64,000 nucleotides of DNA, taken from a virus (lineage: Duplodnaviria > Heunggongvirae > Uroviricota > Caudoviricetes). The notes under the pieces were generated by a model that saw only the letters and a program-made list of their open reading frames with translations, did not search any database and was not told the DNA's origin. The translations under genes and the position numbers were made by a program. The stretch lies in IMG/VR virus record IMGVR_UViG_3300035521_000566. One strand, 5' to 3'. Of this stretch, positions 5,082 to 57,277 are shown piece by piece; the stretch's first letter is position 1; every line of letters begins with the position of its first letter.

Positions 5082-5110
5082 ATTATATATCCATATATGG
5101 AGATTGTCAA
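5082..5110 (-). promoter_or_regulatory. class A promoter: TTGACA-ATCTCCATATATGGATA-TATAAT, drives the giant RNAP-like gene
   Basis: Exact -35 and -10 consensus with 17-nt spacer read on the minus strand; start codon 33 nt downstream. Confidence 0.6.
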
Positions 5111-5210
5111 CAACTGATAATTTTTACAAAAATTTACGGCAACAGACACGCTGCTACCGAAACCTTATTATTAGTCAATTGCAGACTAACTGCAATTATA
5201 GGAACTACCG

Positions 5211-5305
5211 TTACTTTTTATTTAGAAAAAGATGCAAAAAGATGCAAAAAGATGCAAAAAGATGCAAAAAGATGCAAAAAGATGCAAAAAGATGCAAAAA
5301 GATGC
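5211..5305. repeat. tandem 10-bp repeat AAAAGATGCA x9 (phased A5 tracts, predicted intrinsically curved DNA) ~100 bp upstream of the class A promoter of the RNAP-like gene
   Basis: Direct reading of the sequence; period 10 bp matches the helical repeat. Confidence 0.6.
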
Positions 5306-5335
5306 AGAGCCGAAGCTCTGCACCCAAAAAATATA
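5306..5335 (-). terminator. rho-independent terminator (GCAGAGC-TTCG-GCTCTGC + U-run on minus strand) after gene 5370..6890
   Basis: Hairpin followed by T-rich tract on the transcribed strand. Confidence 0.5.
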
Positions 5336-5369
5336 GGAGGTCGGGCTCCAAACAGCCCTCTCTGATTAG

Positions 5370-6890
5370 CTACTCATATACATACATTTCAATACTTGTG
5401 AGCACACCATCTACGAATGAAAACTCAAAACTTCTGTCGTCTGAGTCATATGTATAATAAGTGTATTCACCCCAACTGTCAGTGCTGATACTCTGATAAG
5501 AAGGCTCTCCTAAAATTGCCTTTACATTATCAGTTGTAGATGCAAATGTGACACCGTCTATAGATACATTCGGTCTCTCGCTGCCCGTGCAGCTACCGAA
5601 ATCAAGTTCAAAACCTGAAAATCCTGAACTCGAAATACCAGCGATGGTACTGTTATTGCTGCCACGGTCTGACTGATATACGAATAAAATTGCGTCTGGA
5701 TACTTTGCATTTTCAGCAGTACAGAAACTATATTCACCATCGTCATTTATATCAAGCTGCCAGCCGTCTGCACCAAATATGCTGTCAAACGAATTATTTT
5801 TATATGATAAACTGACTCCGTTGTAAGACATAACATCAGATGTCACAAGACTCTGACTTGGTTCTGTTCCAGTCCAAGCATCAGACTCTGAAGTATCTTC
5901 TGCATCAGTATCATTTGTAATATCAGAAGAACTGTCTGTAGAATCATCAGTTTCGTCGATTATAGAATCATCTATATCTTCGATTATGGACTCATCTGAA
6001 GCTTCAACTGCATTCTTTTTAATGTCTTTAGAAGCCTGTACATCATCTGATTCAATCTTTCCAAAGTCAGAAAAATCAAAATCAATATCAATCGTAATAC
6101 TGAGTTCCAATTCCTGTCCGTCACTCTCAAAAGTGGTTGAATATACCAAATCTTCGGACTTAAGACTCTCTAAGTTAAAATCTGAATCGAATACATATAC
6201 AACAGATGCTTTTCCAAAAGCTTCAAGTACATCATCTGCATCAATATCATCGTTAATTGAGCTTACTGCGTCATCCAGACTATCTGTATCTCCCATAAAC
6301 TCTTTAAAGCTATCACTCTCAAGAATAGATGATACTGGCTGTGTTACAGTATATGTATCAGAATCTTTGTCATAGGACATTTTAGAATCATCAAACAAAC
6401 TGGTATCTATATTCTGGCTCGTAAGCATTGTTAACTTATCTTTATTCTCAGTCACCTCAGAATATGTCCAATCAGATGTCTCACCGTCCTGTGTTTCCTG
6501 CATGTAAACAATAGGATTTTCTTCATCAAAATCCATATATGTTTCAGCCTTTACATTCGTCTGTTGACCCATTACTTCCATATCCATTGATACATTAAGG
6601 TGTGAATACTGACCAGCGACATCGCCCTTAATACCTAAATCAATAGGAATAGACATACTTACGCCTTCTGCACTTATGTCGATACCCGCAGTAATCGTAC
6701 CATCCATGCTGTAATTTGTATTATCATTTTTCTGCCAGTTTGCAACTACATCAGCAGCAGTTTCAGGCTTCTTCGAGTTCTTTCCAATTTCAATGCTGCA
6801 ACCCGACAACATAGACGCACTCAGCAGAAACATAGTTCCTGCTATAAAAACCTTCTTCTTTCTCATAGTCGTATGCTCCTTCTTACCCAA
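5370..6890 (-). CDS. acidic Ser/Thr/Asp-rich lipoprotein (signal peptide + lipobox LSGCS)
   Basis: Six-frame ORF; N-terminal MRKKKVFIAGTMFLLSASMLSGCS; low-complexity D/S/T-rich body. Confidence 0.55.
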   Translation of the reverse strand: MGKKEHTTMRKKKVFIAGTMFLLSASMLSGCSIEIGKNSKKPETAADVVANWQKNDNTNYSMDGTITAGIDISAEGVSMSIPIDLGIKGDVAGQYSHLNVSMDMEVMGQQTNVKAETYMDFDEENPIVYMQETQDGETSDWTYSEVTENKDKLTMLTSQNIDTSLFDDSKMSYDKDSDTYTVTQPVSSILESDSFKEFMGDTDSLDDAVSSINDDIDADDVLEAFGKASVVYVFDSDFNLESLKSEDLVYSTTFESDGQELELSITIDIDFDFSDFGKIESDDVQASKDIKKNAVEASDESIIEDIDDSIIDETDDSTDSSSDITNDTDAEDTSESDAWTGTEPSQSLVTSDVMSYNGVSLSYKNNSFDSIFGADGWQLDINDDGEYSFCTAENAKYPDAILFVYQSDRGSNNSTIAGISSSGFSGFELDFGSCTGSERPNVSIDGVTFASTTDNVKAILGEPSYQSISTDSWGEYTYYTYDSDDRSFEFSFVDGVLTSIEMYVYE

Positions 6891-6966
6891 ATATATTATA
6901 TGACTATTTTCGTCACATTGTATTGATTATATCTCAAATATGCTGATAAATCAAGAAGTTTTTTAT

Positions 6967-7503
6967 TTAATCAAACTCTGGGGAACCAATCTGCTTATCA
7001 GATTGATTAAATTCCTGCATTTTTCGTTCCATGTCTTCGGTTCGATACTCATAATCAAGACGCTTTTTAATTACGTTTGGATTGTGAATAGCTATACTTT
7101 CTAAAATGTTTTGAGCTCTGTCATACTGTAGCACAGCGTCTTTTTGCTCGCCTTCAAGTTTCGTACCTTCAAAACTCTTTGCTCTAAGATTCGCAGCATC
7201 ATACTCTTCGTTCAATTCTGCCATACTCTCACGCATCGTTTCAACGGCATATTTCATACCATTCTCGTCAGCATTTAAAGTCATATTCAGCCATTCGTCT
7301 CTCAACGACTCTTTGGTCGCATCATTATCCATAATCTCATAAGAATCAGAATAATCCATTGTATAAGACGCCATTTTATCTGCCAAATCAGCAGCCCTAC
7401 GCTGACGCTCTTCTTCAGACATTTTAAATGGTGTATTAGCATAACGTTCTAACACTTGTCTGTCTTTCTCAAATCTGGATACTTCAGGTCTCTGTATACT
7501 CAT
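6967..7503 (-). CDS. hypothetical protein (178 aa)
   Basis: ORF with SD (AAAAAGGAGTGA) and class A promoter 36 nt upstream. Confidence 0.55.
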   Translation of the reverse strand: MSIQRPEVSRFEKDRQVLERYANTPFKMSEEERQRRAADLADKMASYTMDYSDSYEIMDNDATKESLRDEWLNMTLNADENGMKYAVETMRESMAELNEEYDAANLRAKSFEGTKLEGEQKDAVLQYDRAQNILESIAIHNPNVIKKRLDYEYRTEDMERKMQEFNQSDKQIGSPEFD

Positions 7504-7538
7504 AATAAGTCACTCCTTTTTATTTATTATTCTAAAAT

Positions 7539-7567
7539 ATTATATCTCCATATATGGAGATTGTCAA
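7539..7567 (-). promoter_or_regulatory. class A promoter: TTGACA-ATCTCCATATATGGAGA-TATAAT
   Basis: Upstream of gene 6967..7503. Confidence 0.6.
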
Positions 7568-7621: not shown

Positions 7622-10600
7622 TTATTTCGTCTTGACCTGCTTTACATTTGACCAGCTGCCATAAACTTTCTGACCGTTAACTGTCTTATATGCTCGAACT
7701 CTCACATAATAAGTCGTCTTAGCCTTAAGGTTCTTAATAGTAACCGATGTGCCTGTTATTGCTTTCTTACCTGGCAATCTCATATTTGACTGAGTAGAAT
7801 ACTCTATCTCGTATCCTGATGTACCAGACACTTTATCAAACGAAACCTTGAACTGCTTTGCACCAGCCACAAGCTTGACATTTGCAACCTTTGCCACATT
7901 TATCTTAGACCACTTAGCATACACAGTGATATTGCCAGTGCTTCCCTTTGTAACATTGGTAAGTCGCTTGGTCAAAGCCTTATCAGTATACCAGCCTTTG
8001 AACTCATATCCATATCGTGTTGCTGGATATAATGTAAAGGTCTTTGTATCCTTTGTGTATGATGTTAAATTAAGTGAATTGTTCTTGGTTCCACCATTTA
8101 ACACATAAGTTATGCTGTACTTACCAGAAGTCAGCTTTGCAATTGTCTTAGTCTTAGTTGTTCTGCAAATATTGCATGTGTAGGTCATAATACCAGTCGA
8201 TGACTCTGTAGCCTTCTTTGTGACCTTACCGCTATTCCACTGATGAGTGCTCAACTTTACAATACTCTTACCATTTGAAATCAGCTCACCACAGGTTTTG
8301 CAATATGTATCACCTGTATAGCCTTCGGACTTACATGTAGCATCAAACTTATTCCTAATTTCAGTAGATGCGTGCTTGCATATTACTTTCAATTTTGAAA
8401 TACTCTCTGTATAAGTGTCACCACAATTAGAACAAGTAAATGTTCTAATGCCTGCAGACTCTGTTGTAGCCTGTACGGTAACAACATCGGTGTAAGTATG
8501 TCCTAATGCTTTAATAACTGTTCCAGTTGTTAAAATTTCGTTGCATAGCGTACACTTTATATCGCCTGCATATCCGTTTTCAGTGCAAGTAGCACCTTTT
8601 ACATTTACAATCTCTGTCTCAGAATGAACAGCTAACTTAGGTATCTGAACATTCTTCACAGTATCGCAATTGAGACACTTGCATGTTATTACACCAGAAG
8701 CTTTACAGGTAGGTTCTGTTACAACAGTACCATCATCCCATATATGCTGCAGCTTAGCAATATTTGCTGTCTTCTGCTCTCCACATATAAGACAGGTATA
8801 AAGCTTTGTACCATACTCGCTACAAGTAGGCTGTGACGCTACTCTTGAAACATAAACACAAGTGTGTTCTTCAATCGGAGTGTCGGGTTCAGGACTCTCT
8901 GATTCTGATGGCAACTTTGCAACTTCTTCGGTCTTAGTAATCTCACATACTGCACAGGTATATGTCTTAATACCTGTTGATGTTGTTGTAGGCTGTTTTG
9001 TGATTGAGCCGTTGTCCCAAGTATGAGTAGTAAGCTTTGCAATAGACTCTGTTCTTGTATCATGGCACTCGCTACAAGTGTATGTCTTAACACCAGCCTC
9101 TTTGCAAGTAGCTTGCTTTGTAACCTCGCCAGCATTCCAAGTATGTGCTGAAGCATCTACTGGAACTTCTTCGGTCTTTGTCTCATTACAACCTGAGCAA
9201 TGATAAGTTCTAACACCCTTCTTTGCACAGGTAGGTTCTGCTGTAACGGTACCACTGTCCCATGCGTGCTGATGTGTCAACTTTGCAACGGACTCTGTTT
9301 TTGTTGTACCACATACAGTACAAGTATATGTCTTAATACCTTCTGATGTCTCAGTCGGTTGCGTAGTAACTACGCCGTTGTTCCATGTATGTTCTGTTAA
9401 CTTAGCTATCTGCTCTGTCTTAGTTGTCTTGCAAACAGCACAGGTGAAAGTCTTTATTCCGAAATCCTTGCATGTTGACTGTGTAGTAACTATACCATCA
9501 TCCCAAGTATGATTTACTTTTGAAATAGCAGTTACTTCAGTCTTAGAATCACATCTGGAACAATGCTTTGACTTTGAGCCTTCTTGGCTGCAAGTAGGTT
9601 CTGTATCAACCGTAAATTCAGTTGAATAATCATGACCCAAAGACTGAATATCTTCAGTTGTGGTAGTATGACAAACAGTACATTCCTTCGTCAAAATACC
9701 GTTATCTTCACAAGTAGCTTCTTTCGTAACGGTACCTGAGTTCCAAGAATGAGTAGTCAGCTTCGGAATAACAGTTACCTCAGTCTTAGAATCGCATGAC
9801 ATACAGTGCTTTGATTTTGAGCCTTCTTGATTACAATTCGGCTCTACATCAACTGTAAAATCACTTGAATAATTATGCTCTAACTTCGGAATATTGTCTC
9901 TTGTTTCTGTTGTGCCACAAATCGTGCAAGTGTAAGTTGTCTGACCATATGCAGAACAAGTTGCTTCTCGTGTCACTTCTCCATCATTCCAAGTATGCTC
10001 ACCAGTAGCCGATATTTCTTCGGTCTTAGTAATTCCACAGATTTCGCAAGTATAAGTTCTTAAGCCAGGCTTACATGACGGTGTCACCGTAACCTCACCA
10101 TCATTCCACTTATGACCTGTATGCGTAATCACTTCAACTGTAGCAGATGAACAGCCTTCGTTTGAACACTTAAACTCTTTATAACCATCTTCTTCGCATG
10201 TAGCATCAACAACATCGCCTGCTATTGTATAATTATGCAACGTGCTGTCAGCTGGAATAACTTCTGTATAAGAGTGTCCACAATCACAATAATAAGCCTG
10301 TGAACCTGTTTTAAAACAAGTTGGATTTACAGTAGCACCCTTATTATAGTTATGGACTTCATAACCCTCATATAAAGTGATACTTGCACGATTATTATTC
10401 CAATCATCTAAGTCAAAAAGCGTTGTACGAGCTTCATCTGTATACCACTTCGTAAAGTGATATAATTCGTTGTCTGCAAAATCAACAGTAGGAAATTCTG
10501 CATTTCCGTCAATAGTAAATGATGCAGACTTGTCATATTCAGAATTAGAGTCTGATGAGTCTTTAATCAAGACACCTGAATTACCTTCAGCATCATTTTG

Positions 10601-11983
10601 TACAATAAATGCTATAGCATACTTCTCATTTGCCTTCTGAGCATATTCAATATAATTATCTAAATCTGCCAATGACTCCTGCATACTGCTTACATAACTA
10701 TCAGCTGAGTCTGTTAATGTCGCAGACAGACATGCATTAGCATAAACAGAAAGATTCTCAATAATTTCATTTAGCTCAGGTGAAATATCAGAAGTATCAT
10801 AAAAATCGCAAATATGCTTCACATTTAATGCAAACACATAATCATCTACAATATCAGATGGTGATGCAGACATAAGAGTTGACAATAAAGAGCTAATATC
10901 ATCAGTCTTATCATGATTATACTTTAAATAGCCTTGCAACTGATACACATAAGATATTGCATCAATATCTGAATCAGTAACAACATAATCGTATATATAC
11001 TTTACCAATGTTGCCATCTCATCCTGATATTCATATGTGTTACTATTCGTTTCGTTAATAAATGCACTAACTTTGACACCCCACTTACGAATCTCTAAAT
11101 CATCATCTGTTGACAAAGCATCTAACAAAGCATCACAATTCGCAAAATCATAACCTTGTTTTGATTCATAAAAGTAGTTCAAATATGCTTTTATCTGATT
11201 CACATAAATTTCATCATCTGTTGTATCAAAAGATGAATCGTCTGAGATAGACACATTTAATATATTATCACAGAGTTTCAGGATACCATTATCACTATCA
11301 TAAATATAAGAATAAGAATAATGTGATGAACTGATTGCATCGAGCGTATCCACATATTCAATTACTTTTAAAGCCCACAACATTCTTTCAGCTTCTGTAG
11401 AAGTGCTATCATCGAGCAACTCACTTACATTGCTGAAATCATGCGAAACGACGACTTGTTTAGTATAATCAGAAGCATCAGTGGCACCCAAATCATTAAG
11501 ATAGATATTGAAATCCATATCTGAGTATCTGTCGGAATAAATCAGATTGGTACCGTGACTTGCATTATAGTTAGCTGTTGCAACTGTCGTGTCAACGCTG
11601 CCGTTGAACCAATGAGTTTCGTAATTTATGTCCAGCAATAAATTGTAAAACTCTAAATAAGCCTGAACATGATTCACACAACTGTTAATTATGTTCTCAT
11701 CACTTGAATCAATACCTGTTTCACATACTGTTTTTGCATCACTTTGATATTTAAAATCATCATGATTGTCAAAAAATGTATTGGCATCACTTAACCACTT
11801 CGTTTTTTCTGCAAGTGAATCAGCTGACTCTAAACTATTTAATAGTTCACTAATTTCACTAACAGTTTGTACTTCTTCTGCTGTTACTGCTGCTTGAACT
11901 GGTGTAGCTATATGCAACATACCCATAAGTAACGCTACAATCAATGTCCAGCTCAGCACACGTTTTGTCTGAGACATAGGCAT
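7622..11983 (-). CDS. large secreted repeat protein: N-terminal signal peptide, about 14 tandem ~44-aa Cys-containing repeats (TYTCxxCGxTxTE...H.W..G.VT...TC), Listeria-Bacteroides-type repeat and Fn3-like C-terminus; adhesin or receptor-binding candidate
   Basis: ORF 1453 aa; signal peptide LIVALLMGMLHIATPVQA; periodic Cys4 repeats visible in translation; C-terminal YSITYVLNGGTKNN...GYEFKGWYTD...ITVYAKW matches the LB-repeat pattern. Confidence 0.65.
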   Translation of the reverse strand: MPMSQTKRVLSWTLIVALLMGMLHIATPVQAAVTAEEVQTVSEISELLNSLESADSLAEKTKWLSDANTFFDNHDDFKYQSDAKTVCETGIDSSDENIINSCVNHVQAYLEFYNLLLDINYETHWFNGSVDTTVATANYNASHGTNLIYSDRYSDMDFNIYLNDLGATDASDYTKQVVVSHDFSNVSELLDDSTSTEAERMLWALKVIEYVDTLDAISSSHYSYSYIYDSDNGILKLCDNILNVSISDDSSFDTTDDEIYVNQIKAYLNYFYESKQGYDFANCDALLDALSTDDDLEIRKWGVKVSAFINETNSNTYEYQDEMATLVKYIYDYVVTDSDIDAISYVYQLQGYLKYNHDKTDDISSLLSTLMSASPSDIVDDYVFALNVKHICDFYDTSDISPELNEIIENLSVYANACLSATLTDSADSYVSSMQESLADLDNYIEYAQKANEKYAIAFIVQNDAEGNSGVLIKDSSDSNSEYDKSASFTIDGNAEFPTVDFADNELYHFTKWYTDEARTTLFDLDDWNNNRASITLYEGYEVHNYNKGATVNPTCFKTGSQAYYCDCGHSYTEVIPADSTLHNYTIAGDVVDATCEEDGYKEFKCSNEGCSSATVEVITHTGHKWNDGEVTVTPSCKPGLRTYTCEICGITKTEEISATGEHTWNDGEVTREATCSAYGQTTYTCTICGTTETRDNIPKLEHNYSSDFTVDVEPNCNQEGSKSKHCMSCDSKTEVTVIPKLTTHSWNSGTVTKEATCEDNGILTKECTVCHTTTTEDIQSLGHDYSTEFTVDTEPTCSQEGSKSKHCSRCDSKTEVTAISKVNHTWDDGIVTTQSTCKDFGIKTFTCAVCKTTKTEQIAKLTEHTWNNGVVTTQPTETSEGIKTYTCTVCGTTKTESVAKLTHQHAWDSGTVTAEPTCAKKGVRTYHCSGCNETKTEEVPVDASAHTWNAGEVTKQATCKEAGVKTYTCSECHDTRTESIAKLTTHTWDNGSITKQPTTTSTGIKTYTCAVCEITKTEEVAKLPSESESPEPDTPIEEHTCVYVSRVASQPTCSEYGTKLYTCLICGEQKTANIAKLQHIWDDGTVVTEPTCKASGVITCKCLNCDTVKNVQIPKLAVHSETEIVNVKGATCTENGYAGDIKCTLCNEILTTGTVIKALGHTYTDVVTVQATTESAGIRTFTCSNCGDTYTESISKLKVICKHASTEIRNKFDATCKSEGYTGDTYCKTCGELISNGKSIVKLSTHQWNSGKVTKKATESSTGIMTYTCNICRTTKTKTIAKLTSGKYSITYVLNGGTKNNSLNLTSYTKDTKTFTLYPATRYGYEFKGWYTDKALTKRLTNVTKGSTGNITVYAKWSKINVAKVANVKLVAGAKQFKVSFDKVSGTSGYEIEYSTQSNMRLPGKKAITGTSVTIKNLKAKTTYYVRVRAYKTVNGQKVYGSWSNVKQVKTK

Positions 11984-12042: not shown

Positions 12043-12071
12043 ATTATATATCCATATATGGTAAAATGCAA
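12043..12071 (-). promoter_or_regulatory. class A promoter variant: TTGCAT-TTTACCATATATGGATA-TATAAT
   Basis: Upstream of gene 7622..11983; -35 diverged but palindromic spacer retained. Confidence 0.5.
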
Positions 12072-12181: not shown

Positions 12182-13384
12182 TTATGATTCTAACTGCTTC
12201 TTCATCTGCTGGTCAAACTTGCCGTTTGCAAATCTCCATGATTTCTGTGAAGCCAGGAATCTGTAAAACTCATCTGTTACAGTAAATGAACCAAAGCTTG
12301 TAAGCTCAGACTTATCAATATCACCTTCGCCATAAACACTGGTATCGCCATCTTTCGCAGCCTGATTTAATGCATTCAAATCGGCTGAAGAATCAGCTCT
12401 TAAGATATATGGCTCTCCGTGAACACCATAGAGATTACCGTTTCTACAAGTAAAGTAGCCTGTGTCATTCCACATGTCACCCTTTACTTCAGTATAAGCC
12501 TTAATAATCTCTTTGTCGAGACTATGGCTGATACCTGTAGGAGAAACCAGCATATCAGGTGAAATCATACCGCCAGCAAACTTCTTTTCAGAATTAGCTT
12601 CGTAATTCTTCATTTGCTTTGCAATTTCCTGCAACTGCTCGGTATTCTCTTCAGCTGAACCCCACATATCATCCTCATCATCGAAATCGTAATCAAAGTC
12701 CTCGAACTCCTCTTCGTCATCGGTGTTCATATTACGGACATATGTATTGATAATATCCATAATTTCATCAGCATAGTTATCAGAATCCAACTGCTCAATA
12801 TCATAATCCGTATACTCATAAGCTGTCTGATACAGGTCTTTAGCAGCCTGTGCCTGATATGCCTGATTCATACGCTTATCAAGCATCTTCTTGAAATCTG
12901 GCTGATTCTTACGTACATCGAAATCAATCGCACTGGAAAGAGTAGGAATTGTCTGTAATGTATACTCTTTACCTGGTTGTGTGATTGTATTCTTGAACAA
13001 TCGCCATGACATCGGCAGAATCGTCTCGTTTCTATTCCAGATAGGTGAGTCACCTGCACGGAATATAATACTGTTACGTTCTGAAATGAATGCCATATCA
13101 TTGTAACTGATAACTGGTACTTCTTTGGTTGTCATCGTATAAGTTGCCTTGCCTTCGTTGGCACTCATACCCTTGAAGATTGTTTCCATATCTCTTGTTA
13201 CAGACTTAGAATCTGTAAATGATTTATGCGTTATACCAGACATTTTCTGCAAGGTATCAAGCATACTATCATCAGTCGACTTCAGGAATACGATGTTACT
13301 TGTGTTTCCTTGCACTATCTTATCTACGCTATCGCCGTAGACATCTTTCAATTGCTGTAATGTTTGTAATATTAAAGATAGCAA
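12182..13384 (-). CDS. type IV coupling protein (VirD4/TraG/TrwB family) C-terminal fragment (putative exon 2) with long acidic tail
   Basis: N-terminus SLILQTLQQLKDVYGDSVDKIVQGNTSNIVF aligns with T4CP motif VVLGLQSISQLRSTYGEDGAQTLLGNLNN; acidic tail DEEEFEDFDYDFDDEDDMW resembles F TraD C-terminus. Confidence 0.55.
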   Translation of the reverse strand: MLSLILQTLQQLKDVYGDSVDKIVQGNTSNIVFLKSTDDSMLDTLQKMSGITHKSFTDSKSVTRDMETIFKGMSANEGKATYTMTTKEVPVISYNDMAFISERNSIIFRAGDSPIWNRNETILPMSWRLFKNTITQPGKEYTLQTIPTLSSAIDFDVRKNQPDFKKMLDKRMNQAYQAQAAKDLYQTAYEYTDYDIEQLDSDNYADEIMDIINTYVRNMNTDDEEEFEDFDYDFDDEDDMWGSAEENTEQLQEIAKQMKNYEANSEKKFAGGMISPDMLVSPTGISHSLDKEIIKAYTEVKGDMWNDTGYFTCRNGNLYGVHGEPYILRADSSADLNALNQAAKDGDTSVYGEGDIDKSELTSFGSFTVTDEFYRFLASQKSWRFANGKFDQQMKKQLES

Positions 13385-23000: not shown

Positions 23001-23183
23001 CTAAATCTTCCCAGTCTGTCGATAGGTGTCTAAATATAGCTGTATTGCGTGCTCTATAGTAACCGTTTTTGTCAATCCAGTTTCTTCACAGAAATTATCC
23101 AAGTCGTTTGCTATATCTTCTTTAACATAGCAATTAACATACCGTCCAGCTTTCTTTGGACGACCTACAGGTTTTTCAGCCAT
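23001..23183 (-). CDS. small ribbon-helix-helix (CopG/Arc-like) DNA-binding protein
   Basis: 60 aa; GRPKKAGRYVNCYVKEDIANDLDNFCEETGLTKTVTIEHAIQLYL fits the beta-alpha-alpha RHH pattern. Confidence 0.45.
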   Translation of the reverse strand: MAEKPVGRPKKAGRYVNCYVKEDIANDLDNFCEETGLTKTVTIEHAIQLYLDTYRQTGKI

Positions 23184-24243: not shown

Positions 24244-24272
24244 ATCATAGTACCATATATGGAGATTGTCAA
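24244..24272 (-). promoter_or_regulatory. class A promoter: TTGACA-ATCTCCATATATGGTAC-TATGAT
   Basis: ~240 nt upstream of gene 23460..24002, so a long leader. Confidence 0.45.
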
Positions 24273-31004: not shown

Positions 31005-31034
31005 TTATTAGTTTATTATATATCCATATATGGA
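31005..31034 (-). promoter_or_regulatory. class A promoter: TTGACA-AAGCTCCATATATGGATA-TATAAT (18-nt spacer)
   Basis: Upstream of gene 30182..30979. Confidence 0.55.
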
Positions 31035-31092
31035 GCTTTGTCAATATTTGCATAGAAAAGCCTACGGCTCAAGTGAGCTGTAGGCTCTTTTT

Positions 31093-34267: not shown

Positions 34268-34321
34268 ATTATATATCCATATATGGAGATTGTCAATATG
34301 TAATCCATATATGGTATTTTT
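34268..34321 (-). promoter_or_regulatory. class A promoter: TTGACA-ATCTCCATATATGGATA-TATAAT plus an adjacent partial second copy (TAATCCATATATGGTAT at 34301-34317)
   Basis: Upstream of gene 33129..34235. Confidence 0.55.
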
Positions 34322-37947: not shown

Positions 37948-37976
37948 TTGACAATCTCCATATATGGTGATATACT
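37948..37976 (+). promoter_or_regulatory. class A promoter in plus orientation: TTGACA-ATCTCCATATATGGTGA-TATACT
   Basis: Upstream of gene 38019..38378. Confidence 0.55.
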
Positions 37977-48707: not shown

Positions 48708-48753
48708 ATATCACAACAAATCTTGTCATGACTTGCAATATTATTGCAATTAG

Positions 48754-48960: not shown

Positions 48961-48964
48961 CTAT

Positions 48965-49048
48965 AGAGCCATAGTCGGTAGGGTGAGATTCGGACTCACA
49001 ACGTTTCTAATGTCACAGTTTTACAGACTGCTTGCTTCACCAGTTTGC
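48965..49048 (-). tRNA. tRNA-Tyr (anticodon GTA), long variable arm
   Basis: Acceptor CGGTAGG/CCTACCG, loop CTGTAAA, 84 nt. Confidence 0.55.
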
Positions 49049-49117
49049 ATACCTACCGTAATCAGTAATAATCAAGGATATAATAATAATCAACCATATT
49101 CATCACTCCTTTTAATA

Positions 49118-49198
49118 AAATCATAAGTACCCGTAGAGGGATTCGAACCCTCACCCTTTCGGGACCTGTTTCTAAGACAAGCATGTATTCCAGTTCCA
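49118..49198 (-). tRNA. tRNA-Leu (anticodon TAG), long variable arm
   Basis: Acceptor GCCCGTA/TACGGGT, loop CTTAGAA, variable hairpin CCCGAAAGGG. Confidence 0.5.
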
Positions 49199-49203
49199 AC
49201 ATA

Positions 49204-49278
49204 CGGGCATAAGTAGGTGTGGTCAGATTCGAACTGACAATAAAATTGTGTTTGAAACAACCCCGTCTACCAGTTGCG
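49204..49278 (-). tRNA. tRNA with anticodon CAA (Leu by anticodon) but class-I length (75 nt)
   Basis: Acceptor GGGTGTG/CACACCT, anticodon stem GTTGT/ACAAT, loop TTCAAAC; no long variable arm. Confidence 0.4.
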
Positions 49279-49282
49279 GCAC

Positions 49283-49366
49283 ACACCCACAGTACACCCG
49301 ATGAGAGTCGAACTCACATGCTGTTACCAGCGTCAGAGCTTAAATCTGATGCGTCTTCCAGTTCCG
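49283..49366 (-). tRNA. tRNA-Leu (anticodon TAA), long variable arm
   Basis: Anticodon stem TCAGA/TCTGA, loop TTTAAGC, 84 nt. Confidence 0.5.
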
Positions 49367-49467
49367 CCACGGGTGCATAATTATTTAATTTTAGTTCACC
49401 TGCGAGTCGCAGGACTTGTAATCGCAATCGTAACATAATCTTAATCTCCTATTCTGAAATATTTGCA

Positions 49468-49538
49468 AGCTGGATAAGCGAATCGAACGCTTGTCATCGG
49501 GTTACAAAGCCGAGGCTCTGCCATTGAGCAAATCCAGC
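49468..49538 (-). tRNA. tRNA-Thr (anticodon TGT)
   Basis: Acceptor GCTGGAT/ATCCAGC; loop TTTGTAA; one mismatch at base of anticodon stem. Confidence 0.45.
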
Positions 49539-49543
49539 ATAGT

Positions 49544-49612
49544 TGCTGCAACCAGGTTCGAACTGATTACAATGTGGATATGAGCCACATCTGCTTCCAC
49601 TAGCATTGCAGC
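49544..49612 (-). tRNA. compact tRNA with CAT anticodon (Met, or Ile2 if lysidinylated), 69 nt
   Basis: Acceptor GCTGCAA/TTGCAGC, anticodon stem TGTGG/CCACA, loop CTCATAT, short D-arm. Confidence 0.45.
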
Positions 49613-49747
49613 ATTATTTTAAAATCAATGCCTTTCTCACTTTCTCCGCAAAGAACGAGCTTTCATCAAGTGGTAGGATGACACATCATCTACTCACCGC
49701 TATGGCTGTCCGCAAACACCGATGGGCTTTATATTTTGCTATTTCAG

Positions 49748-49818
49748 TAGGGCGTAACGGAATCGAACCGTTCTTAGATGCTTATAAGACACCCGCACTC
49801 CCACTGTACTAACGCCCC
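49748..49818 (-). tRNA. tRNA-Ile (anticodon TAT)
   Basis: Acceptor GGGGCGT/ACGCCCT, anticodon stem GGTGT/GCATC, loop CTTATAA. Confidence 0.45.
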
Positions 49819-49882
49819 TTATTTAATAATAAAAGACGCTATTCGTATTCGTTTTGATTCCATTAAAAGTTCTCCTTTTTTT

Positions 49883-49955
49883 TTATATAATAAGTGCGTA
49901 ACGGGAATCGAACCCGTCCCTTTAGTTTGGAGGACTAACATGCAAGCCGCTAACA
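49883..49955 (-). tRNA. tRNA, anticodon unresolved (best fold gives TCC = Gly with C33)
   Basis: Good acceptor GTGCGTG/TACGCAC and T-arm ACGGG-TTCGATT-CCCGT; anticodon loop CCTCCAA. Confidence 0.35.
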
Positions 49956-49997
49956 CCTCACGCACATTTTTTTTATATCAAGTAAGTGCCTGTTTTA

Positions 49998-50069
49998 CTT
50001 GATATAATACTCGGTACGAGAATCGAACTCGTCTCTTTGCCGTGAAAGGGCAACAACTTAACCGCTTGT
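49998..50069 (-). tRNA. tRNA-Glu (anticodon TTC)
   Basis: T-arm ACGAG-TTCGATT-CTCGT, anticodon stem TTGCC/GGCAA, loop CTTTCAC. Confidence 0.5.
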
Positions 50070-50085
50070 CCAACCGAGCATATTT

Positions 50086-50161
50086 AATATTTAAAGGTGA
50101 CCGACGGGATTTGAACCCGCATCCTTCGGAACCACAATCCGACGCATTACCAAAAATCTGC
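50086..50161 (-). tRNA. tRNA-His (anticodon GTG)
   Basis: Anticodon stem TCGGA/TCCGA, loop TTGTGGT; T-loop TTCAAAT. Confidence 0.5.
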
Positions 50162-50162
50162 C

Positions 50163-50235
50163 ACAGCCACAGTACCCGATGTATGACTCGAACATACCAC
50201 CCTCTGTATGTAAGACAGATGCTCTACCAGATGAG
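50163..50235 (-). tRNA. tRNA-Val (anticodon TAC)
   Basis: Acceptor GCCCGAT/ATCGGGT, anticodon stem TCTGT/ACAGA, loop CTTACAT. Confidence 0.5.
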
Positions 50236-50241
50236 CTAATC

Positions 50242-50316
50242 GGGCATATAATCGGAATGGCGAGATTCGAACTCACAATGTCTCGGTCCCAAGCCGAGCG
50301 GATTAGCCAAATTATC
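50242..50316 (-). tRNA. tRNA-Pro (anticodon TGG)
   Basis: Acceptor CGGAATG/CATTCCG, anticodon stem CTCGG/CCGAG, loop CTTGGGA. Confidence 0.55.
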
Positions 50317-50323
50317 CTACATT

Positions 50324-50397
50324 CCGATATTCAGTAGTCCCTGCGGGAATTGAACCCAGCGTCTCCAGATTGAGAGTCTGATGTCGTAACCGTTAGA
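50324..50397 (-). tRNA. tRNA-Glu (anticodon CTC)
   Basis: Acceptor GGTCCCT/AGGGACT, anticodon stem TCAGA/TCTGG, loop CTCTCAA; weak T-stem. Confidence 0.4.
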
Positions 50398-50430
50398 CTA
50401 AGGGACCATATTCTATAAGCAATACCTTTC

Positions 50431-50505
50431 TAACAGTATTGGATTCGAACCACATCTCCGTGTCACTCACCACGACGTTCTACCATTGAACTAACCACCA
50501 TACTC
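50431..50505 (-). pseudogene. degenerate tRNA-like sequence (good D-arm; 8-nt anticodon loop GTGAGTGA; weak T and acceptor stems)
   Basis: D-arm GTTC-AATGGTA-GAAC intact; acceptor has 4 GU pairs; T-stem has only 3 pairs. Confidence 0.3.
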
Positions 50506-50518
50506 GGTATTACTTAAA

Positions 50519-50594
50519 TGGAGCTTTTGGGAATCGAACCCAACTGTTTTCCTGCTTGCAAGGCAGGTGACCACCCCTTGCAGTCCCAAACCCC
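50519..50594 (-). tRNA. tRNA-Ala (anticodon TGC) with G3:U70 identity pair
   Basis: Acceptor GGGGTTT/AAGCTCC (G3-U70 wobble), anticodon stem CCTGC/GCAGG, loop CTTGCAA, T-arm TTGGG-TTCGATT-CCCAA. Confidence 0.5.
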
Positions 50595-50602
50595 ATATTA
50601 AG

Positions 50603-50675
50603 TGGCTCGTGATAGTTTCGGGCTATCGACACTTTGGGCTTCAACCAAATGCTCTACCATCTGAGCTAACGAGCC
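50603..50675 (-). tRNA. tRNA-Phe (anticodon GAA) with unusual T-loop CCCGAAA
   Basis: Acceptor GGCTCGT/ACGAGCC, D-stem GCTC/GAGC, anticodon stem TTTGG/CCAAA, loop TTGAAGC, T-stem GATAG/CTATC. Confidence 0.5.
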
Positions 50676-50726
50676 AGTTTTATTTAGTTTAACTTATTAT
50701 CAGGTGCCTGTTCTGATAATAATCAG

Positions 50727-50799
50727 CTCCCACAACAGGGTTCGAACCTGTGACATACTGGTTAACAGCCAGTCGCTCTACCTACTGAGCTATATGGGA
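50727..50799 (-). tRNA. tRNA-Asn (anticodon GTT)
   Basis: D-arm GCTC-AGTAGGTA-GAGC, anticodon stem ACTGG/CCAGT, loop CTGTTAA, T-arm ACAGG-TTCGAAC-CCTGT. Confidence 0.55.
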
Positions 50800-51871: not shown

Positions 51872-52894
51872 TCATAATATACATTCCTCAGCGTTTTTCT
51901 CAGGACGCAATCTTAAAAATCTAGGATGTCTGTACGCCCCTGTCTTCTTAATCTGTTCCATCGCACCAATCTCCATTGCTGTTCCAATGTATTCTGGCTT
52001 AATATTATGATTACCGTCTGATAACAGAATCTTAGTGGCATCATCTATTCCCGATGTCTGACCAAGCTCTACTAAGCTGCCTTCGACATATTTGCCGAAT
52101 CGAATGGCTCCAATCCAGCCGTTATGCCATGCCTTTGTTACTTTGTCACCATTCTCGTAATATTGCCAGACTGTAGTATTATCTTGGTCTAATAAGATAC
52201 CTTCGTATTCTCTTGTAGGAGCGGTTGCCCCCATTATGACTACATCATCTGTAATATACTTCTTGAGCTTTATCTGCATCTTACTTCTTGTAGGACTGTC
52301 GCTTGATGACATATATATGCTGTCTTTATGCTTTAACACAAGTCCTTCACCGCCAGAGCCTACAATCTTATGAAACAAATCCATCTTGTTTCTTGTATAA
52401 GTAGGCAAAACGATAATATAATCTGTTCCGTATTTGGCTTTAATCTGAGCTACTACTTGTGATGCCAACTTAATACGGTCTGAATATCCCATATTTGTTA
52501 CATCAACACCGTTATGTCTTACAATATCAAAGACTTTATACTTGATATAGCCCATTTGTTCCTGTTTCTTGATTGCCAGTTCTGGCAAACTGCCCATAAT
52601 TGAAACTGTCTGGCTGAAATCATCATGCTGAATTTCACCATCTAAAATCGTACCAGCCAGTTCAGGCATCACTAATTTAGATAAGTGAGGTACGTTTTCA
52701 GTTTTCTCTACAGGTGCACCCGTAATTCTTGACTTCTGTCGGCTACTGAATCTATTGCAATCTGCTTCAATAAACATCGTATACCGACTTCCGTCTACTT
52801 TTTCCTGTGCTATCCAATCACTGTCATCTGCAAGCATCTCATCAGTAATTGTACCTGAAGACGCAAGCATCGGATATAAAGCTTCTAACTGCAT
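51872..52894 (-). CDS. ATP-dependent DNA ligase (T7-like, 340 aa)
   Basis: Motif I IAQEKVDGSR (KxDG), motif III/IV TILDGEI, motif V GGEGLVLKHKDS. Confidence 0.65.
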   Translation of the reverse strand: MQLEALYPMLASSGTITDEMLADDSDWIAQEKVDGSRYTMFIEADCNRFSSRQKSRITGAPVEKTENVPHLSKLVMPELAGTILDGEIQHDDFSQTVSIMGSLPELAIKKQEQMGYIKYKVFDIVRHNGVDVTNMGYSDRIKLASQVVAQIKAKYGTDYIIVLPTYTRNKMDLFHKIVGSGGEGLVLKHKDSIYMSSSDSPTRSKMQIKLKKYITDDVVIMGATAPTREYEGILLDQDNTTVWQYYENGDKVTKAWHNGWIGAIRFGKYVEGSLVELGQTSGIDDATKILLSDGNHNIKPEYIGTAMEIGAMEQIKKTGAYRHPRFLRLRPEKNAEECIL

Positions 52895-53490: not shown

Positions 53491-55620
53491 TTATTCTTTT
53501 TGCATATCGTTTTCTGTCTGCTCTGACTGAGCCGAACACATATTGATAGACTGCACAGTCAACTTAACAGCAAGCTTCATGTCTTTATTATAGTCCTGGT
53601 CAAGCTTTACAGTCTTGCTATTATGCTTTAGCTCAGCTGATGCCTTATTCTGTTCCAGAATAGGCTTCGTTGCCATTCTGTCTGCCAGCTCTTTCATAAC
53701 CTGAATATCTTTATTCTGAAAGGTTTCTATCATGTATTCCTGTCCAGAATCTCTTAGATAGTCACACGCTGACTGATATTTTGAATGTCTCTCGTTTGCA
53801 GCTTCTATGAAATTATCAGCATTAAACTTCGAGATAGGAACATCATATGTCCAATCATATGATAAATGATGCAGGTCTAATGCTTTCACTTCCCGAAAAG
53901 CATAGCCCTCTTCTTTTTTAACACCTTGTCCATCAAACTTTAAGCCGTAACCCGAAAGCTTCACTTGAAAATCTTCTTCCATCTCATCATAACGATGCTG
54001 CATCTGTAAGATACGATTTTCTAGTACCTGAGGCTCTGTTGCAGCAAATCGTCCGCCGTGCATGTCATAAACACGCAATCCATAATCTTCAGCACTTTCA
54101 GGCTTCATACGTTTACAAGACTTATCGTCTTTCAACTGTCCTAATTTATGTATTTTATGTTTATATTCCATCAATTCATGAAAGTCATCTTCATACTTAT
54201 CCTGAGACGGCAAGAAACTCAAAAAGTGCTGATACTTACTCATTACTTTTGAGTTGTACTCCTGCTCTTCTTTAAAGAAGTCATACAAAGGCTGTGACGC
54301 TGGAGCTACTGTTCCATTGTCTTTCGCCCTTTCATACTGTCTGGACAAATCATGGTATTTTGCCATCTCTTTTTTATGATGTTCCAATCTGCTGGAATAC
54401 GACCGAAGTTTAAATCCGAATTCAATCATCGGGTCATCTTTCACATGGTCAGCCATCGTCTCATAATCCATACTCATAGCGTCGAGCATCGGTGTCTTTA
54501 CTTTGCGTTCTTCATCAGGAACCTGTCTTAATACAGCATAAACACCGTTCATACAATCCTCTACGATTCTCTGTCTGCCATCATCAATCAGCTTACGATG
54601 TTCTCGTGGCGATAAATCTTCTCGAACTGTACGCTCGTCTGCGTACGCTGCTACATCTCGCATTGCTTCTCGATAACCTGAATCTGGCTGCTCTAGTACC
54701 TGTTCTACATACTCACGGACAATCGCATTCGCTTTCTGCATCTCTTTTCGGTTTGTAGATGCTCGCCATAAAGATTTATCATCAGGCAAGCACGCCATTA
54801 AGAGCTGTGGTGTGCCGTGCTCGTCCATCGTCTGATGCGTATATTTTTTGATAAAGCACAACGCATTTCTCTTATCGTAAGTAATATTACTGCTCATCAT
54901 AGCCACTTTTTGTTTCTCATCTAAAAACATATCAATACCACGACGCAAATCACGCTTATTCTTCTCAGAAAGTTTTCCCCGCTGTGTTCCGTCTTTTGTG
55001 ATATTACCCAATCCTCGGTCTACCATAGCAAGATGACAATGCACATGGGCTGTATCAACCTGTATTACACCAACATACTGAAGGTCATCGTATTCCGAAC
55101 TCATCTTGTCCATTCCATTCATAATAGCCATACGAAGCTTCATCTGGTCAATGTTACCTCGGTAATCGCCACGCTGTTTGAACTCAAAGCTATCATCTAT
55201 GATTTTATTTTTCTTAAGATAATCTTCGTCAAACGACAGAACTGTCTTCATAACAGTCTTTCCAGCATCGAAATTACGCTGAATATCTTTACTAGCCCAG
55301 CGAATCTTGGCATCTGATAAAGATACATCGCCGTATCCAAATGCAATACCGCCGACACCATCAGCCTCTCGAATCTTCTGTTTCTCATCAGGTACAGACT
55401 CGCACACTTCCGAAGCTTCTTTACGAGCCATATATCGTGTGATAAAAGATTCATGGTCTTGCAGCCTAACAGGTGTCAGGTCTTCGACAGCCTTATCTCG
55501 TGCCATATACCGTAATACATAGTCTCCAGGGGTTCCTCCACGAGAACCGCCTTTTGAGCCTTTATTCTTAATTGAGTATTCATTAACTACAACGATTGAC
55601 TGTTTCAATCCCATGAACAC
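53491..55620 (-). CDS. MobA/MobL-family (MOBQ-type) relaxase, 709 aa with long C-terminal extension
   Basis: N-terminus KGSKGGSRGGTPGDYVLRYMARDKA (cf RSF1010 MobA KTGSRSGGQSARAKADYIQREGKYARD, catalytic Tyr region) and IQVDTAHVHCHLAMVDRG (cf MobA HAGGGENPHCHLMISER His-triad motif); class B promoter 55658-55686. Confidence 0.65.
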   Translation of the reverse strand: MFMGLKQSIVVVNEYSIKNKGSKGGSRGGTPGDYVLRYMARDKAVEDLTPVRLQDHESFITRYMARKEASEVCESVPDEKQKIREADGVGGIAFGYGDVSLSDAKIRWASKDIQRNFDAGKTVMKTVLSFDEDYLKKNKIIDDSFEFKQRGDYRGNIDQMKLRMAIMNGMDKMSSEYDDLQYVGVIQVDTAHVHCHLAMVDRGLGNITKDGTQRGKLSEKNKRDLRRGIDMFLDEKQKVAMMSSNITYDKRNALCFIKKYTHQTMDEHGTPQLLMACLPDDKSLWRASTNRKEMQKANAIVREYVEQVLEQPDSGYREAMRDVAAYADERTVREDLSPREHRKLIDDGRQRIVEDCMNGVYAVLRQVPDEERKVKTPMLDAMSMDYETMADHVKDDPMIEFGFKLRSYSSRLEHHKKEMAKYHDLSRQYERAKDNGTVAPASQPLYDFFKEEQEYNSKVMSKYQHFLSFLPSQDKYEDDFHELMEYKHKIHKLGQLKDDKSCKRMKPESAEDYGLRVYDMHGGRFAATEPQVLENRILQMQHRYDEMEEDFQVKLSGYGLKFDGQGVKKEEGYAFREVKALDLHHLSYDWTYDVPISKFNADNFIEAANERHSKYQSACDYLRDSGQEYMIETFQNKDIQVMKELADRMATKPILEQNKASAELKHNSKTVKLDQDYNKDMKLAVKLTVQSINMCSAQSEQTENDMQKE

Positions 55621-55686: not shown

Positions 55687-55738
55687 CAATAAAATATATT
55701 TTAAAGTGTGCTATAGGTGTGTCATTCATAGCACAAAA

Positions 55739-55768
55739 ATAAGACACCAAAACATGGTGTCTTATTTA
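55739..55768 (-). terminator. terminator AAGACACC-AAAACAT-GGTGTCTT
   Basis: Downstream of gene 55779..56486. Confidence 0.45.
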
Positions 55769-55778
55769 ATTTATGTAT

Positions 55779-56486
55779 TTAGATTTCAGCCTGTGCCTGT
55801 GCCTCATTTGAAACCAAAAGATTATTATTTAATCTCTGAGCGTCTTGCTGCATCTTAGACTTATCAACAATATTCTTTGTTTCAGACTTAGAACCTATTG
55901 CTGTAGGCTCAGGCATATTATTAAGCTTATTTTTATTATTTGAAAGAGCTGCACCGATATTTTGTATCGTCTGCTTTGTCTCATTCATAGTCTCAGAAGG
56001 TACATTCTTGATTGAATCAACCTGAGATTTTACATTGTATGCTACGAGTTCGCCACCTATTTTGACCTTATTGTCTAATGACTGACCTTTCATATCATTT
56101 ATTGCACTCACTGTTGCTTTTGTCTGTTCAATTCTTGACTTACAATCCTGCATAGTACCTTTTGCAACGGTTGGAGCCACTTTCGCAAGTGATGCAACGC
56201 CAGAAACCTTTTCGCCTGCTACAATATCTGCAACACCATATGCAACACCTGGTGCTGCTTTTATATTATTGACAGTGCTCTTGGTTCTGTAATTCGAAGC
56301 TTTATCTAAGTGCTTCTTTGTCTTATCAGACAATCCAGATGAATCCTTCTTAGCGAGCTTTTTTTTAGACTTAGATTTATGCTTGGACTTATTCTCATCT
56401 TTTTTCAACTGCTTTTCTCGCTCAGCCATCTCTTCGGGGCTATTACGCAACTGTCTGTTTGCTGCTTTCAACGCTCTTGGTGCCAT
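55779..56486 (-). CDS. Lys-rich protein (235 aa), paralog of 56528..57214
   Basis: Shared G-x-G-(I/V)-A/VKGG segment and C-terminal QDA.RL.-N-L motif with neighbour; terminator 55739-55768 downstream. Confidence 0.45.
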   Translation of the reverse strand: MAPRALKAANRQLRNSPEEMAEREKQLKKDENKSKHKSKSKKKLAKKDSSGLSDKTKKHLDKASNYRTKSTVNNIKAAPGVAYGVADIVAGEKVSGVASLAKVAPTVAKGTMQDCKSRIEQTKATVSAINDMKGQSLDNKVKIGGELVAYNVKSQVDSIKNVPSETMNETKQTIQNIGAALSNNKNKLNNMPEPTAIGSKSETKNIVDKSKMQQDAQRLNNNLLVSNEAQAQAEI

Positions 56487-56527
56487 ATAATCGCTCCTCT
56501 CTAAAATCTTATATCAAAAGCTTTGAT

Positions 56528-57214
56528 TTAATAATCCATTCCTGCCTGATAATCAGGACCCTGCTGAATTTCAAGATTAGATTGTAAACGATTTGCGTCC
56601 TGCACCATCTTATCATACGAAACCTTATTTGTTTCTGTCTGAATCTCTGTTTGTACTTCAGTCGCTTCTGTAGTCTCTTTTGAAAGACCACTGTTCTCTA
56701 GCTGATGACTCTCAATCATTTCTGCCTGCTCATTCTTCAGCTTCTCATCTTCTACTTTTTCAAGTTCCTTACGGTCTTTTCTTAACTCTTTGAAAGTGGT
56801 CTGACCTGTAAGAACCTTGCTAGTATCCTTTACTTTACCCAAAGTATTCTGAATATCTTTCTTAGGCTTATGCTTCAGAGCTTCACGAGATGCATCTGAC
56901 TTGGCTTCGCTATACTCAGCCTTTAACTGAACCTGCTCTTCTTTTGAAAGATACTTTGAATCCTTTTTAAGACTGGCTTTCGCATTCTTCTCAAGTTTAC
57001 GGGCTTGATGTGAATCTTTTACAAGATTAGCACCGCCCTTTACAATTCCGACTGGTCCACCAGTTGCAATCGTAAATACATCGCCTGCTTTGTCAGCACG
57101 CTTCTCAGCTGCCTTCTCCATCTGTTTGCGTGTATTTTCTGACATCTGTACATTAGAATGTTCTACATTTTTATTCTTTAATTTCTTAGCCATTGTAATT
57201 CCCCTTTCAATCAT
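56528..57214 (-). CDS. Lys-rich protein (228 aa), paralog of 55779..56486
   Basis: ORF; class A promoter 57249-57277; SD GAAAGGGGAATTACA. Confidence 0.45.
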   Translation of the reverse strand: MIERGITMAKKLKNKNVEHSNVQMSENTRKQMEKAAEKRADKAGDVFTIATGGPVGIVKGGANLVKDSHQARKLEKNAKASLKKDSKYLSKEEQVQLKAEYSEAKSDASREALKHKPKKDIQNTLGKVKDTSKVLTGQTTFKELRKDRKELEKVEDEKLKNEQAEMIESHQLENSGLSKETTEATEVQTEIQTETNKVSYDKMVQDANRLQSNLEIQQGPDYQAGMDY

Positions 57215-57248
57215 AAAATACTGCTACGTTACATATTTGTATTTATTT

Positions 57249-57277
57249 ATTATATATCCATATATGGAGAATGTCAA
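57249..57277 (-). promoter_or_regulatory. class A promoter: TTGACA-TTCTCCATATATGGATA-TATAAT
   Basis: Upstream of gene 56528..57214. Confidence 0.55.

Follow-up and report, generated by a model that had tools for sequence, protein, structure and literature searches.

A repeated promoter with a conserved internal site, here termed class A, is present throughout the 64,000-nucleotide stretch of IMG/VR record IMGVR_UViG_3300035521_000566 (the window). It is a real, strongly selected promoter-plus-site cassette in an undescribed family of elements, otherwise known only from metagenomes. The window is part of a conjugative plasmid-like element of ~184-208 kb. Each copy of the cassette combines -35 and -10 hexamers of the sigma-70/sigma-A type with the 13-nt spacer core TCTCCATATATGG, which includes the 10-bp palindrome CCATATATGG. 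On balance, we favor reading class A as a promoter for host sigma-A polymerase that contains a binding site for a single trans-acting regulator, most probably a repressor.

Class-A promoters in the window

The window was searched for the 20-nt pattern TTGACAATCTCCATATATGG with up to three mismatches allowed, and expectations were derived from shuffles. This returned six matches compared with 0.00 expected. Five are exact (5091-5110, 7548-7567, 24253-24272 and 34277-34296 on the minus strand, 37948-37967 on the plus strand) and one carries a single mismatch (57258-57277, minus). The palindrome CCATATATGG occurs exactly nine times and, at up to one mismatch, at 17 sites versus 1.77 expected. Searching for it added two variant promoters (12052, 31024) and one lone palindrome. 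The eight copies reported in the initial annotation, seven minus and one plus, were thereby recovered at their positions as six canonical and two variant promoters (Table 1). A ninth copy of this element lies just beyond the window start, in an extension of ~3 kb, while ~7 kb past the window end contain no class-A copy; the count of nine refers to ~67 kb of the element.

The -35 boxes of the canonical copies start at 5110, 7567, 24272, 34296 and 57277 (minus) and at 37948 (plus). All eight copies had been described as perfect -35/-10 pairs separated by 17 nt. This description holds for four of them (5110, 7567, 34296, 57277), but the 31044 copy has perfect hexamers with an 18-nt spacer, caused by a 1-nt insertion in the variant at 31024, and the remaining three carry TATGAT, TATACT or TTGCAT hexamers. 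The last of these belongs to the variant at 12052, in which the -35 box is degenerate and the spacer starts with TTTA. Overall, hexamers score 12/12 in five copies and 11/12 in two, with a weak -35 box in one; seven copies have a 17-nt spacer and the other has one of 18 nt. When 60 kb were scanned for promoters, all 12/12 matches to TTGACA-N16-18-TATAAT proved to be class-A copies.

The placement is that of sigma-70/sigma-A promoters, as had been proposed. All eight copies are intergenic and oriented toward a downstream gene, with a Shine-Dalgarno sequence and ATG start codon located 32-59 nt past the -10 box. In the 24272 copy this distance is 241 nt, and the leader holds a second promoter-like site (24114). 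Terminator-like hairpins directly precede several copies. Given these upstream terminators and a gene of its own for each copy, we treat the copies as separate transcription units. Among their products is a 1453-aa surface protein with a signal peptide, a Listeria-Bacteroides repeat and an fn3 domain.

The palindrome extends to a perfect 18 bp only in the 7548 copy, and the conserved block is asymmetric: TTGACA-(A/T)TCT-CCATATATGG. A hairpin, formed either in single-stranded DNA after conjugative entry (as in F Frpo or the N4 early promoters) or in RNA, is a hardly credible function for the palindrome. The element is conjugative, its DNA presumably enters single-stranded, and nearly all genes and class-A copies share one orientation, all of which would suit such a structure. 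However, a typical copy folds with only -1.5 kcal/mol (z = 0.03), and the version in a distant relative described below with -0.6; the 7548 copy alone reaches -5.3. The hexamers also lie outside the palindrome, so that no -35/-10 duplex would be rebuilt, and the site is upstream of the predicted transcription start, so that it is absent from its own mRNA. On folding, hairpin and cruciform models were rejected.

Conservation of the spacer core in related elements

A search of related elements, which the initial annotation had suggested, found the same block in three of them. A metagenome scan identified the 243-kb contig Ga0247610_10000020 (Ga0247610) with five matches; at one mismatch, the 32 kb examined contain seven class-A copies. 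This is a distant relative, with a coupling protein 70% identical, other proteins 27-37% identical and DNA that is essentially unalignable. Contigs L040 and L044 encode a homologue of the window's giant RNA-polymerase-like protein (57-58% identical) and contain two exact class-A copies each, of which one immediately precedes the giant gene, matching the arrangement in the window. Outside such relatives the block is rare. Nine single matches to TTGACANNCTCCATATATGG, taken as chance-level, were found in unrelated metagenome-assembled genomes in a scan of 185,579 species genomes. In IMG/VR there were zero exact matches to the 20-mer, and the looser TCTCCATATATGGNNNTATA gave ten single matches without a -35 box.

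Twenty copies were compared: nine from this element and two, two and seven from the examined parts of the three relatives. The spacer core TCTCCATATATGG shows 3 mismatches in 260 positions, compared with 5/114 in the -35 hexamer, 9/120 in the -10 hexamer and 26/60 in the three bases before the -10 box (core versus the three free bases, Fisher p = 1.5e-18). Conservation sets in abruptly with the opening T of the -35 box and stops at the closing T of the -10 box. When the sequences preceding the orthologous giant gene were compared for four lineages, nothing outside TTGACA through the -10 box could be aligned; the promoter at this gene is kept in L040, L044 and L027, whereas its flanks are unalignable. 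Purifying selection acts more strongly on the core than on the hexamers. Because the core has fewer mismatches than the hexamers and is identical between elements whose proteins are only ~30-70% identical, it must be constrained beyond -35/-10 function, as the initial annotation had held for the spacer.

The -10 box and the three bases before it depend on lineage (ATA-TATAAT versus CGT-TATACT), while the core is unchanged. On this basis the cassette is modular, consisting of sigma boxes and a separate element. The Ga0247610 lineage keeps a G at -14, where a weaker hexamer would gain strength.

It is doubtful that the core is instead an intrinsic DNA-shape or strength element, i.e. a flexible alternating AT tract flanked by CC and GG, kept uniform by duplication and gene conversion. 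Copies are indeed near-identical cassettes, and several of those in Ga0247610 are alike for ~25 nt past the -10 box, so whole cassettes have been copied. The free positions are uniform by lineage (ATA in three, CGT in the fourth), which suggests some concerted evolution. Gene conversion within an element cannot, however, explain identity across elements whose proteins are ~30% identical. Spacer-sequence effects on sigma-70 promoters are not known to require 13 invariant bases, nor would an intrinsic element account for a core that is better conserved than the hexamers contacted by polymerase or for a lone palindrome without a promoter.

A putative operator within a predicted host promoter

We infer that the hexamers are read by the host because the consensus match is perfect and both placement and orientation are correct. 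In the proposed mechanism, the housekeeping sigma-A RNA polymerase of the host would recognize TTGACA, the 17-nt spacing and TATAAT or TATACT. The core, spanning about -28 to -16 with CCATATATGG centred near -20/-21, would bind one sequence-specific protein. A protein bound between the hexamers would block polymerase and hence act as a repressor. One switch would then govern at least nine transcription units, which encode the giant polymerase-like protein, surface and membrane proteins and small tailed proteins. By analogy with RK2/RP4 and R388, these strong promoters might fire in a burst in a repressor-free recipient cell and then be shut off. An element of ~200 kb with perfect-consensus promoters would plausibly need such restraint.

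The initial annotation had proposed that one regulator co-regulates these genes. A common trans-acting factor is the most economical explanation, since the constraint is not explained by -35/-10 function and is kept across lineages, but no regulator was tied to the site. The lone palindrome next to copy 6 also counts in favor of a separable site. It is located in the divergent intergenic region shared with a plus-strand gene (34437-34826) and may be an auxiliary site.

A similar arrangement is found elsewhere. On unrelated GC-rich metagenome contigs, TTGACA-NN-CTCCATATATGGAG occurs just upstream of Xre genes. In the L022 group of contigs, the gene is followed by a 225-aa open reading frame (ORF) for a probable RES-type toxin, read by eye without a domain search. 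From their sequences, the L022 and L023 cases look like independent use of the same palindrome as a self-operator within a promoter spacer. Such Xre arrangements are typical of self-repression, and we count them toward the operator interpretation.

Several observations weigh against an operator for an element-encoded dimer. The palindrome CCATATATGG, proposed as a dimer operator, is invariant, but its flanks are asymmetric: TCT on the left is conserved in 19/20 copies and the mirror positions are free, which a simple symmetric dimer would not predict. As CCATATATGG is invariant in every lineage, compensatory symmetric changes are unobservable. No binding protein is tied to the site among the window candidates. 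One of these, a 60-aa ribbon-helix-helix (RHH) protein, is encoded in the window behind its own promoter, which follows two terminators and lacks the palindrome; only three of its homologues were available for co-occurrence, all on short contigs without the promoter region. It would also be unusual for an element-encoded regulator-operator pair to keep an identical site while proteins diverge to ~30% identity. An alternative reading of the frozen site is that a conserved host factor, or a polymerase directly, recognizes it.

A search for symmetric variants covered L042 (giant protein 32% identical), L060 and L061 (p368 homologues, ~35%), none of which has the motif. In L042, the most distant of the giant-protein relatives, an Xre-type repressor gene instead lies beside repeated ATGTACTTTT(G/C)AAAAG-like boxes that precede the giant gene (9390-9640), where a different control system appears to occupy the same position. 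A literature search for CCATATATGG returned only eukaryotic CArG-box, primer and vector contexts.

A conserved host protein is a very improbable reader of the site. The concrete candidate is NrdR, a near-universal repressor that senses dATP/ATP, and a host factor of frozen specificity would explain why the site has not drifted between very divergent elements. Positions C4, A6, A8, T9, T11 and G13 of the NrdR box are highly conserved (PMC13584703). The class-A 16-mer TCTCCATATATGGxxx matches all six of them in 20/20 copies and resembles NrdR boxes in its AT-rich centre and core-promoter position. However, NrdR binds paired boxes joined by a 15-16 bp linker, and box spacing matters for high affinity (PMC13584703), whereas class A has a single box. 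No second box (at least 5/6) was present at 31-32 or 41-42 bp on either side in the 20 copies, the sole double site being spaced by 28 bp. Class A also has C and G at positions 5 and 12, which in both boxes lower NrdR affinity 5-10 fold (PMC13584703), and the window lacks ribonucleotide reductase genes. The match emerged only once several known motifs had been compared and, in a palindrome, represents three independent positions only. The canonical NrdR architecture was rejected, given the single box without a tandem partner.

Comparison with known systems

By analogy, the closest counterpart of the class-A cassette appears to be the global operators that recur on conjugative plasmids. In RP4 (IncP-1, as is RK2), KorA recognizes a symmetric operator of 12 bp that is found at seven promoters (PMC2665229). 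Similarly, an element of 10-13 bp is present here inside at least nine promoters of one conjugative element. In contrast to RK2/RP4, no KorA or KorB homologue was seen, the host type is Gram-positive-like, the site is mid-spacer between -35 and -10, symmetry is lacking in the conserved block and a second, cooperating operator was not found. Plasmid R388 (IncW) has strong promoters under tight negative feedback, with expression overshoot after transfer (PMC3937220). Class A likewise consists of maximal-strength promoters on a conjugative element that would need steady-state repression, but R388 uses several repressors with their own sites whereas one identical site is reused here.

The spacer of a sigma-70-type promoter is also occupied by a palindromic site in class A as in Pant of phage P22 and the promoters of the MerR family, although binding to the class-A site is putative. 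In those systems the sites are bound by Arc, whose 21-bp operator is contacted by two dimers, and by DNA-twisting activators that act on over-long spacers of 19-20 bp. Class-A spacers have the optimal 17 nt (18 in one copy). A MerR-type mechanism was rejected on spacer length and because the sole MerR-like protein in the window is a 62-aa helix-turn-helix (HTH) domain only. In large phages of the T7 and SPO1 types, near-identical copies of early or middle promoters define temporal gene classes. The present element differs from these in having conjugation genes, no phage hallmarks and hexamers of the host housekeeping sigma factor.

Candidate regulators

Pfam scans of about 60 window proteins identified only three DNA-binding candidates, and no sigma factor was detected. 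The three are the RHH protein, the 62-aa HTH protein and a 303-aa Myb-like protein (Table 1), none of which is encoded directly behind a class-A promoter in the window. The HTH protein is too short for a canonical MerR protein and has no dimerisation or effector domain. The RHH protein is the only window candidate with a homologue in the examined part of Ga0247610, where only 7 bp separate the end of its gene from a class-A promoter. The N-terminal arm and beta-strand of the protein, RPKKxGxxxNxY, do not vary among the homologues, whose overall identity falls as low as 36%. The Ga0247610 gene, too, has its own palindrome-free promoter behind a terminator. The link between the RHH protein and the motif is weak because this is the case in both elements; the gene is not simply part of a class-A operon. 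The regulator gene may lie in the remaining part of the element, about two thirds of it, beyond the window.

A second promoter class is also present in the window. Its members have (A/T)ATGAG directly after a TTGA(C/T)(A/T) -35 box, and the promoters around the RHH gene belong to it. A related motif, CTCATAAATGA or CGTAAATGAG, occurs just past the -10 box in other promoters. Judging from its sequence, the second promoter motif is probably a second type of operator. The promoters at 47542 and 48627 have the downstream sequence TAAAATcttctcataaatga in common.

The giant polymerase-like protein and shared C-terminal tails

A class-A copy precedes the giant gene in all four lineages (4/4). The 2541-aa product contains a DFDGD motif at residue 1502 and a weak match to Rpb1 domain 2, and its best PDB match, 8h2n/8h2m, aligns over the motif. 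On these three grounds it is assigned a YonO-like two-barrel polymerase domain. Homologues on other contigs are 2483, 2509 and 1935 aa long.

Many class-A-driven products share a type of C-terminal tail with the giant protein (...GRMPDMPSSSVTDGRGSMGED). In the window, tails include ...KQIGSPEFD, ...HNDGHMPAGFDD...GPEFDDSY, ...QQGPDYQAGMDY, ...NKQAGD and ...SQQGE. Nearly all products of the Ga0247610 class-A operons end in ...RRLP(D/E)VP...(K/Q)QxGE, and a ~10-kb stretch of about 20 genes in that contig has neither class-A promoters nor the tail. The L040 tails read PKNDGH(M/L)P.... This shared tail gives the class-A gene set the appearance of functional coherence. As far as its sequence suggests, the tail might serve as a signal for transfer or recognition, or mark its carriers for the adjacent ClpB-like ATPase.

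These features bear on whether the ~29-nt block is the promoter of an element-encoded machine, which the initial annotation had raised as an alternative. One candidate machine is the giant YonO-like polymerase, which might be transferred together with the DNA; another is an as yet unrecognized sigma-like or appropriator factor. The position of class A before the polymerase gene and the tail that its product shares would agree with this, as would the contiguous, asymmetric block (20 nt plus the -10 box), which is as in promoters of single-chain polymerases. In addition, the YonO promoter sequence is not known (PMC5467207). We nevertheless consider recognition by such a machine unlikely. The hexamers match the sigma-70/sigma-A consensus exactly and stand at the optimal distance of 17 nt, and the -10 box varies as sigma-A sites do: TATAAT, TATACT and TATAGT keep A2 and T6, with the G at -14 present when the hexamer is weaker. 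The lack of a detectable sigma factor in the window also argues against it. Furthermore, if the giant enzyme were the sole reader, expression of its own gene would need pre-existing enzyme.

A broader and decidedly unlikely possibility is that the class-A genes form a regulon for establishment in what would be a new family of giant conjugative elements, with the block read by element machinery or by a factor that redirects host polymerase. The tail patterns RRLPDVP...QxGE, PKNDGHxP... and ...GRMPDMP...MGED are cited for it. If true, the polymerase and its tailed partners would be delivered to, or made first in, the recipient, providing a plasmid analogue of the virion polymerases that N4-like and crAss-like phages inject.

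The element carrying the promoters

DNA identical to the window is present on metagenome contigs of 184-208 kb. Phage origin was rejected: when 25 kb were compared by megablast with phage and plasmid collections, the only match was a group II intron segment of ~90 bp. PHROGs gave no matches for ten window proteins, and the window contains no phage hallmark genes. Given its conjugation genes (MobL relaxase, coupling protein), the element is not a phage. What known plasmids share with the element is limited to distant homologues of MobL (identity of 45% or less). Strong AGGAGG-type ribosome sites and the sigma-A consensus indicate a Gram-positive-like host type.

Other features are listed in Table 1. 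The iteron GGTATAGAA(a/g)TT occurs in at least 15 copies, in both orientations, at 24330-25006 between the 24272 class-A copy and the HTH_17/D5 primase-helicase module. This region is probably a replication origin, or possibly a partition site; an inverted repeat, GGTACTATATTATAATATTATTATAGTATGG, is found at about 24200-24230. The gene for the type IV coupling protein is split by a group II intron, within which a 383-aa ORF (13605-14756) had no reverse-transcriptase match in Pfam. In the L040 relative the coupling gene is in more pieces, and the ClpB-like gene has a LAGLIDADG insertion that is intein-like in appearance. A hairpin with a 13-bp stem (AAATAAGACACCAAAACATGGTGTCTTATTT) lies in the intergenic stretch that immediately precedes the MobL relaxase gene (55737-55767) and is a candidate oriT or bidirectional terminator. 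The tRNA at 50430-50500 is predicted to have a four-base anticodon loop (gagt).

Table 1. Coordinates of class-A promoters and other features, in the window unless a contig (L followed by a number) is named.
Feature	Position	Strand	Gene or remark
Class-A copy 1, TTGACA-ATCTCCATATATGGATA-TATAAT	5082..5110	-	Giant 2541-aa YonO-like gene, start codon 5049; hairpin 5159-5137 upstream
Class-A copy 2, spacer with 18-bp palindrome ATCTCCATATATGGAGAT	7539..7567	-	178-aa gene (6967-7503), then 506-aa secreted-type protein (5370-6890); terminator-like hairpin 7604-7578 directly upstream
Class-A copy 3, variant TTGCAT-TTTACCATATATGGATA-TATAAT, weak -35	12043..12071	-	1453-aa surface protein gene (7622-11983)
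Class-A copy 4, -10 box TATGAT	24244..24272	-	180-aa gene (23460-24002); edge of iteron array
Class-A copy 5, variant TTGACA-AAGCTCCATATATGGATA-TATAAT, 18-nt spacer	31015..31044	-	Zinc-ribbon membrane protein gene (30182-30979); hairpin 31059-31086 upstream
Class-A copy 6	34268..34296	-	368-aa gene (33129-34235)
Lone CCATATATGG	34305..34314		28 bp upstream of copy 6, centre to centre
Class-A copy 7, TTGACA-ATCTCCATATATGGTGA-TATACT, TG before -10	37948..37976	+	119-aa gene (38019-38378), then DUF5688-like ORF; sole plus copy
Class-A copy 8, TTGACATTCTCC...	57249..57277	-	228-aa and 235-aa genes (56528-57214, 55779-56486), upstream of MobL relaxase gene
Second promoter class, -35 starts	6954, 32568, 33041, 41763, 43229, 51532, 55686, 58577	-	
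Second promoter class, also	22839, 47542, 48627, 62731		
RHH protein, 60 aa (RepB-RCR_reg/RHH_3)	23001..23183	-	Pfam; weak candidate regulator
MerR/HTH_17-type HTH protein, 62 aa	25227..25415	+	Candidate regulator; upstream of D5-like primase-helicase gene
Myb-like + HTH_17 protein, 303 aa	45897..46808	-	Pfam; candidate regulator
Giant gene	1-5049, continuing outside window; L006 12455-20080	-	2541 aa
Tailed proteins, window	23460-24002, 6967-7503, 38019-38378, 55779-57214, 57386-58495, 44798-45613		
Tailed proteins, other contigs	L039 559-11342; L024 1197-5044; L040 10001-23402; L006 12455-20080		
Xre arrangement	L022 1414-1450 (same in L026, L029, L032, L036, L038)		Xre-like gene, then 225-aa ORF
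Xre arrangement	L023 612-650		131-aa Xre-type HTH gene downstream of CTCCATATATGGAG site
MobL relaxase	53491-55620		Pfam
Type IV coupling protein, exons	15306-18515 + 12182-13384		Pfam; split by group II intron
Group II intron RNA	13378-15298	-	Rfam D1-D4 and domain V/VI matches
D5-type primase-helicase	25453-27123		Pfam
ClpB-like AAA+ protein	20946-22739		Pfam
EcoRI-type DNA methyltransferase	36315-37298		Pfam
N6_N4-type DNA methyltransferase	35520-36299		Pfam
ATP-dependent ligase	51872-52894		Pfam
30 tRNA genes, two arrays	42197-42934 and 48242-50799	-	

Implications

A repeated operator inside plasmid promoters is already known as a principle, and the value of class A is in the system that it opens rather than in a new mechanism. 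If the core is an operator, nine or more strong promoters of this undescribed ~200-kb conjugative element would be controlled by one protein. The 20-nt block provides a cheap and highly specific probe for the family, given that relatives contain many copies and species genomes only chance-level single ones. The site is also an experimental handle on the master regulator and timing programme of a family known only from metagenomes.

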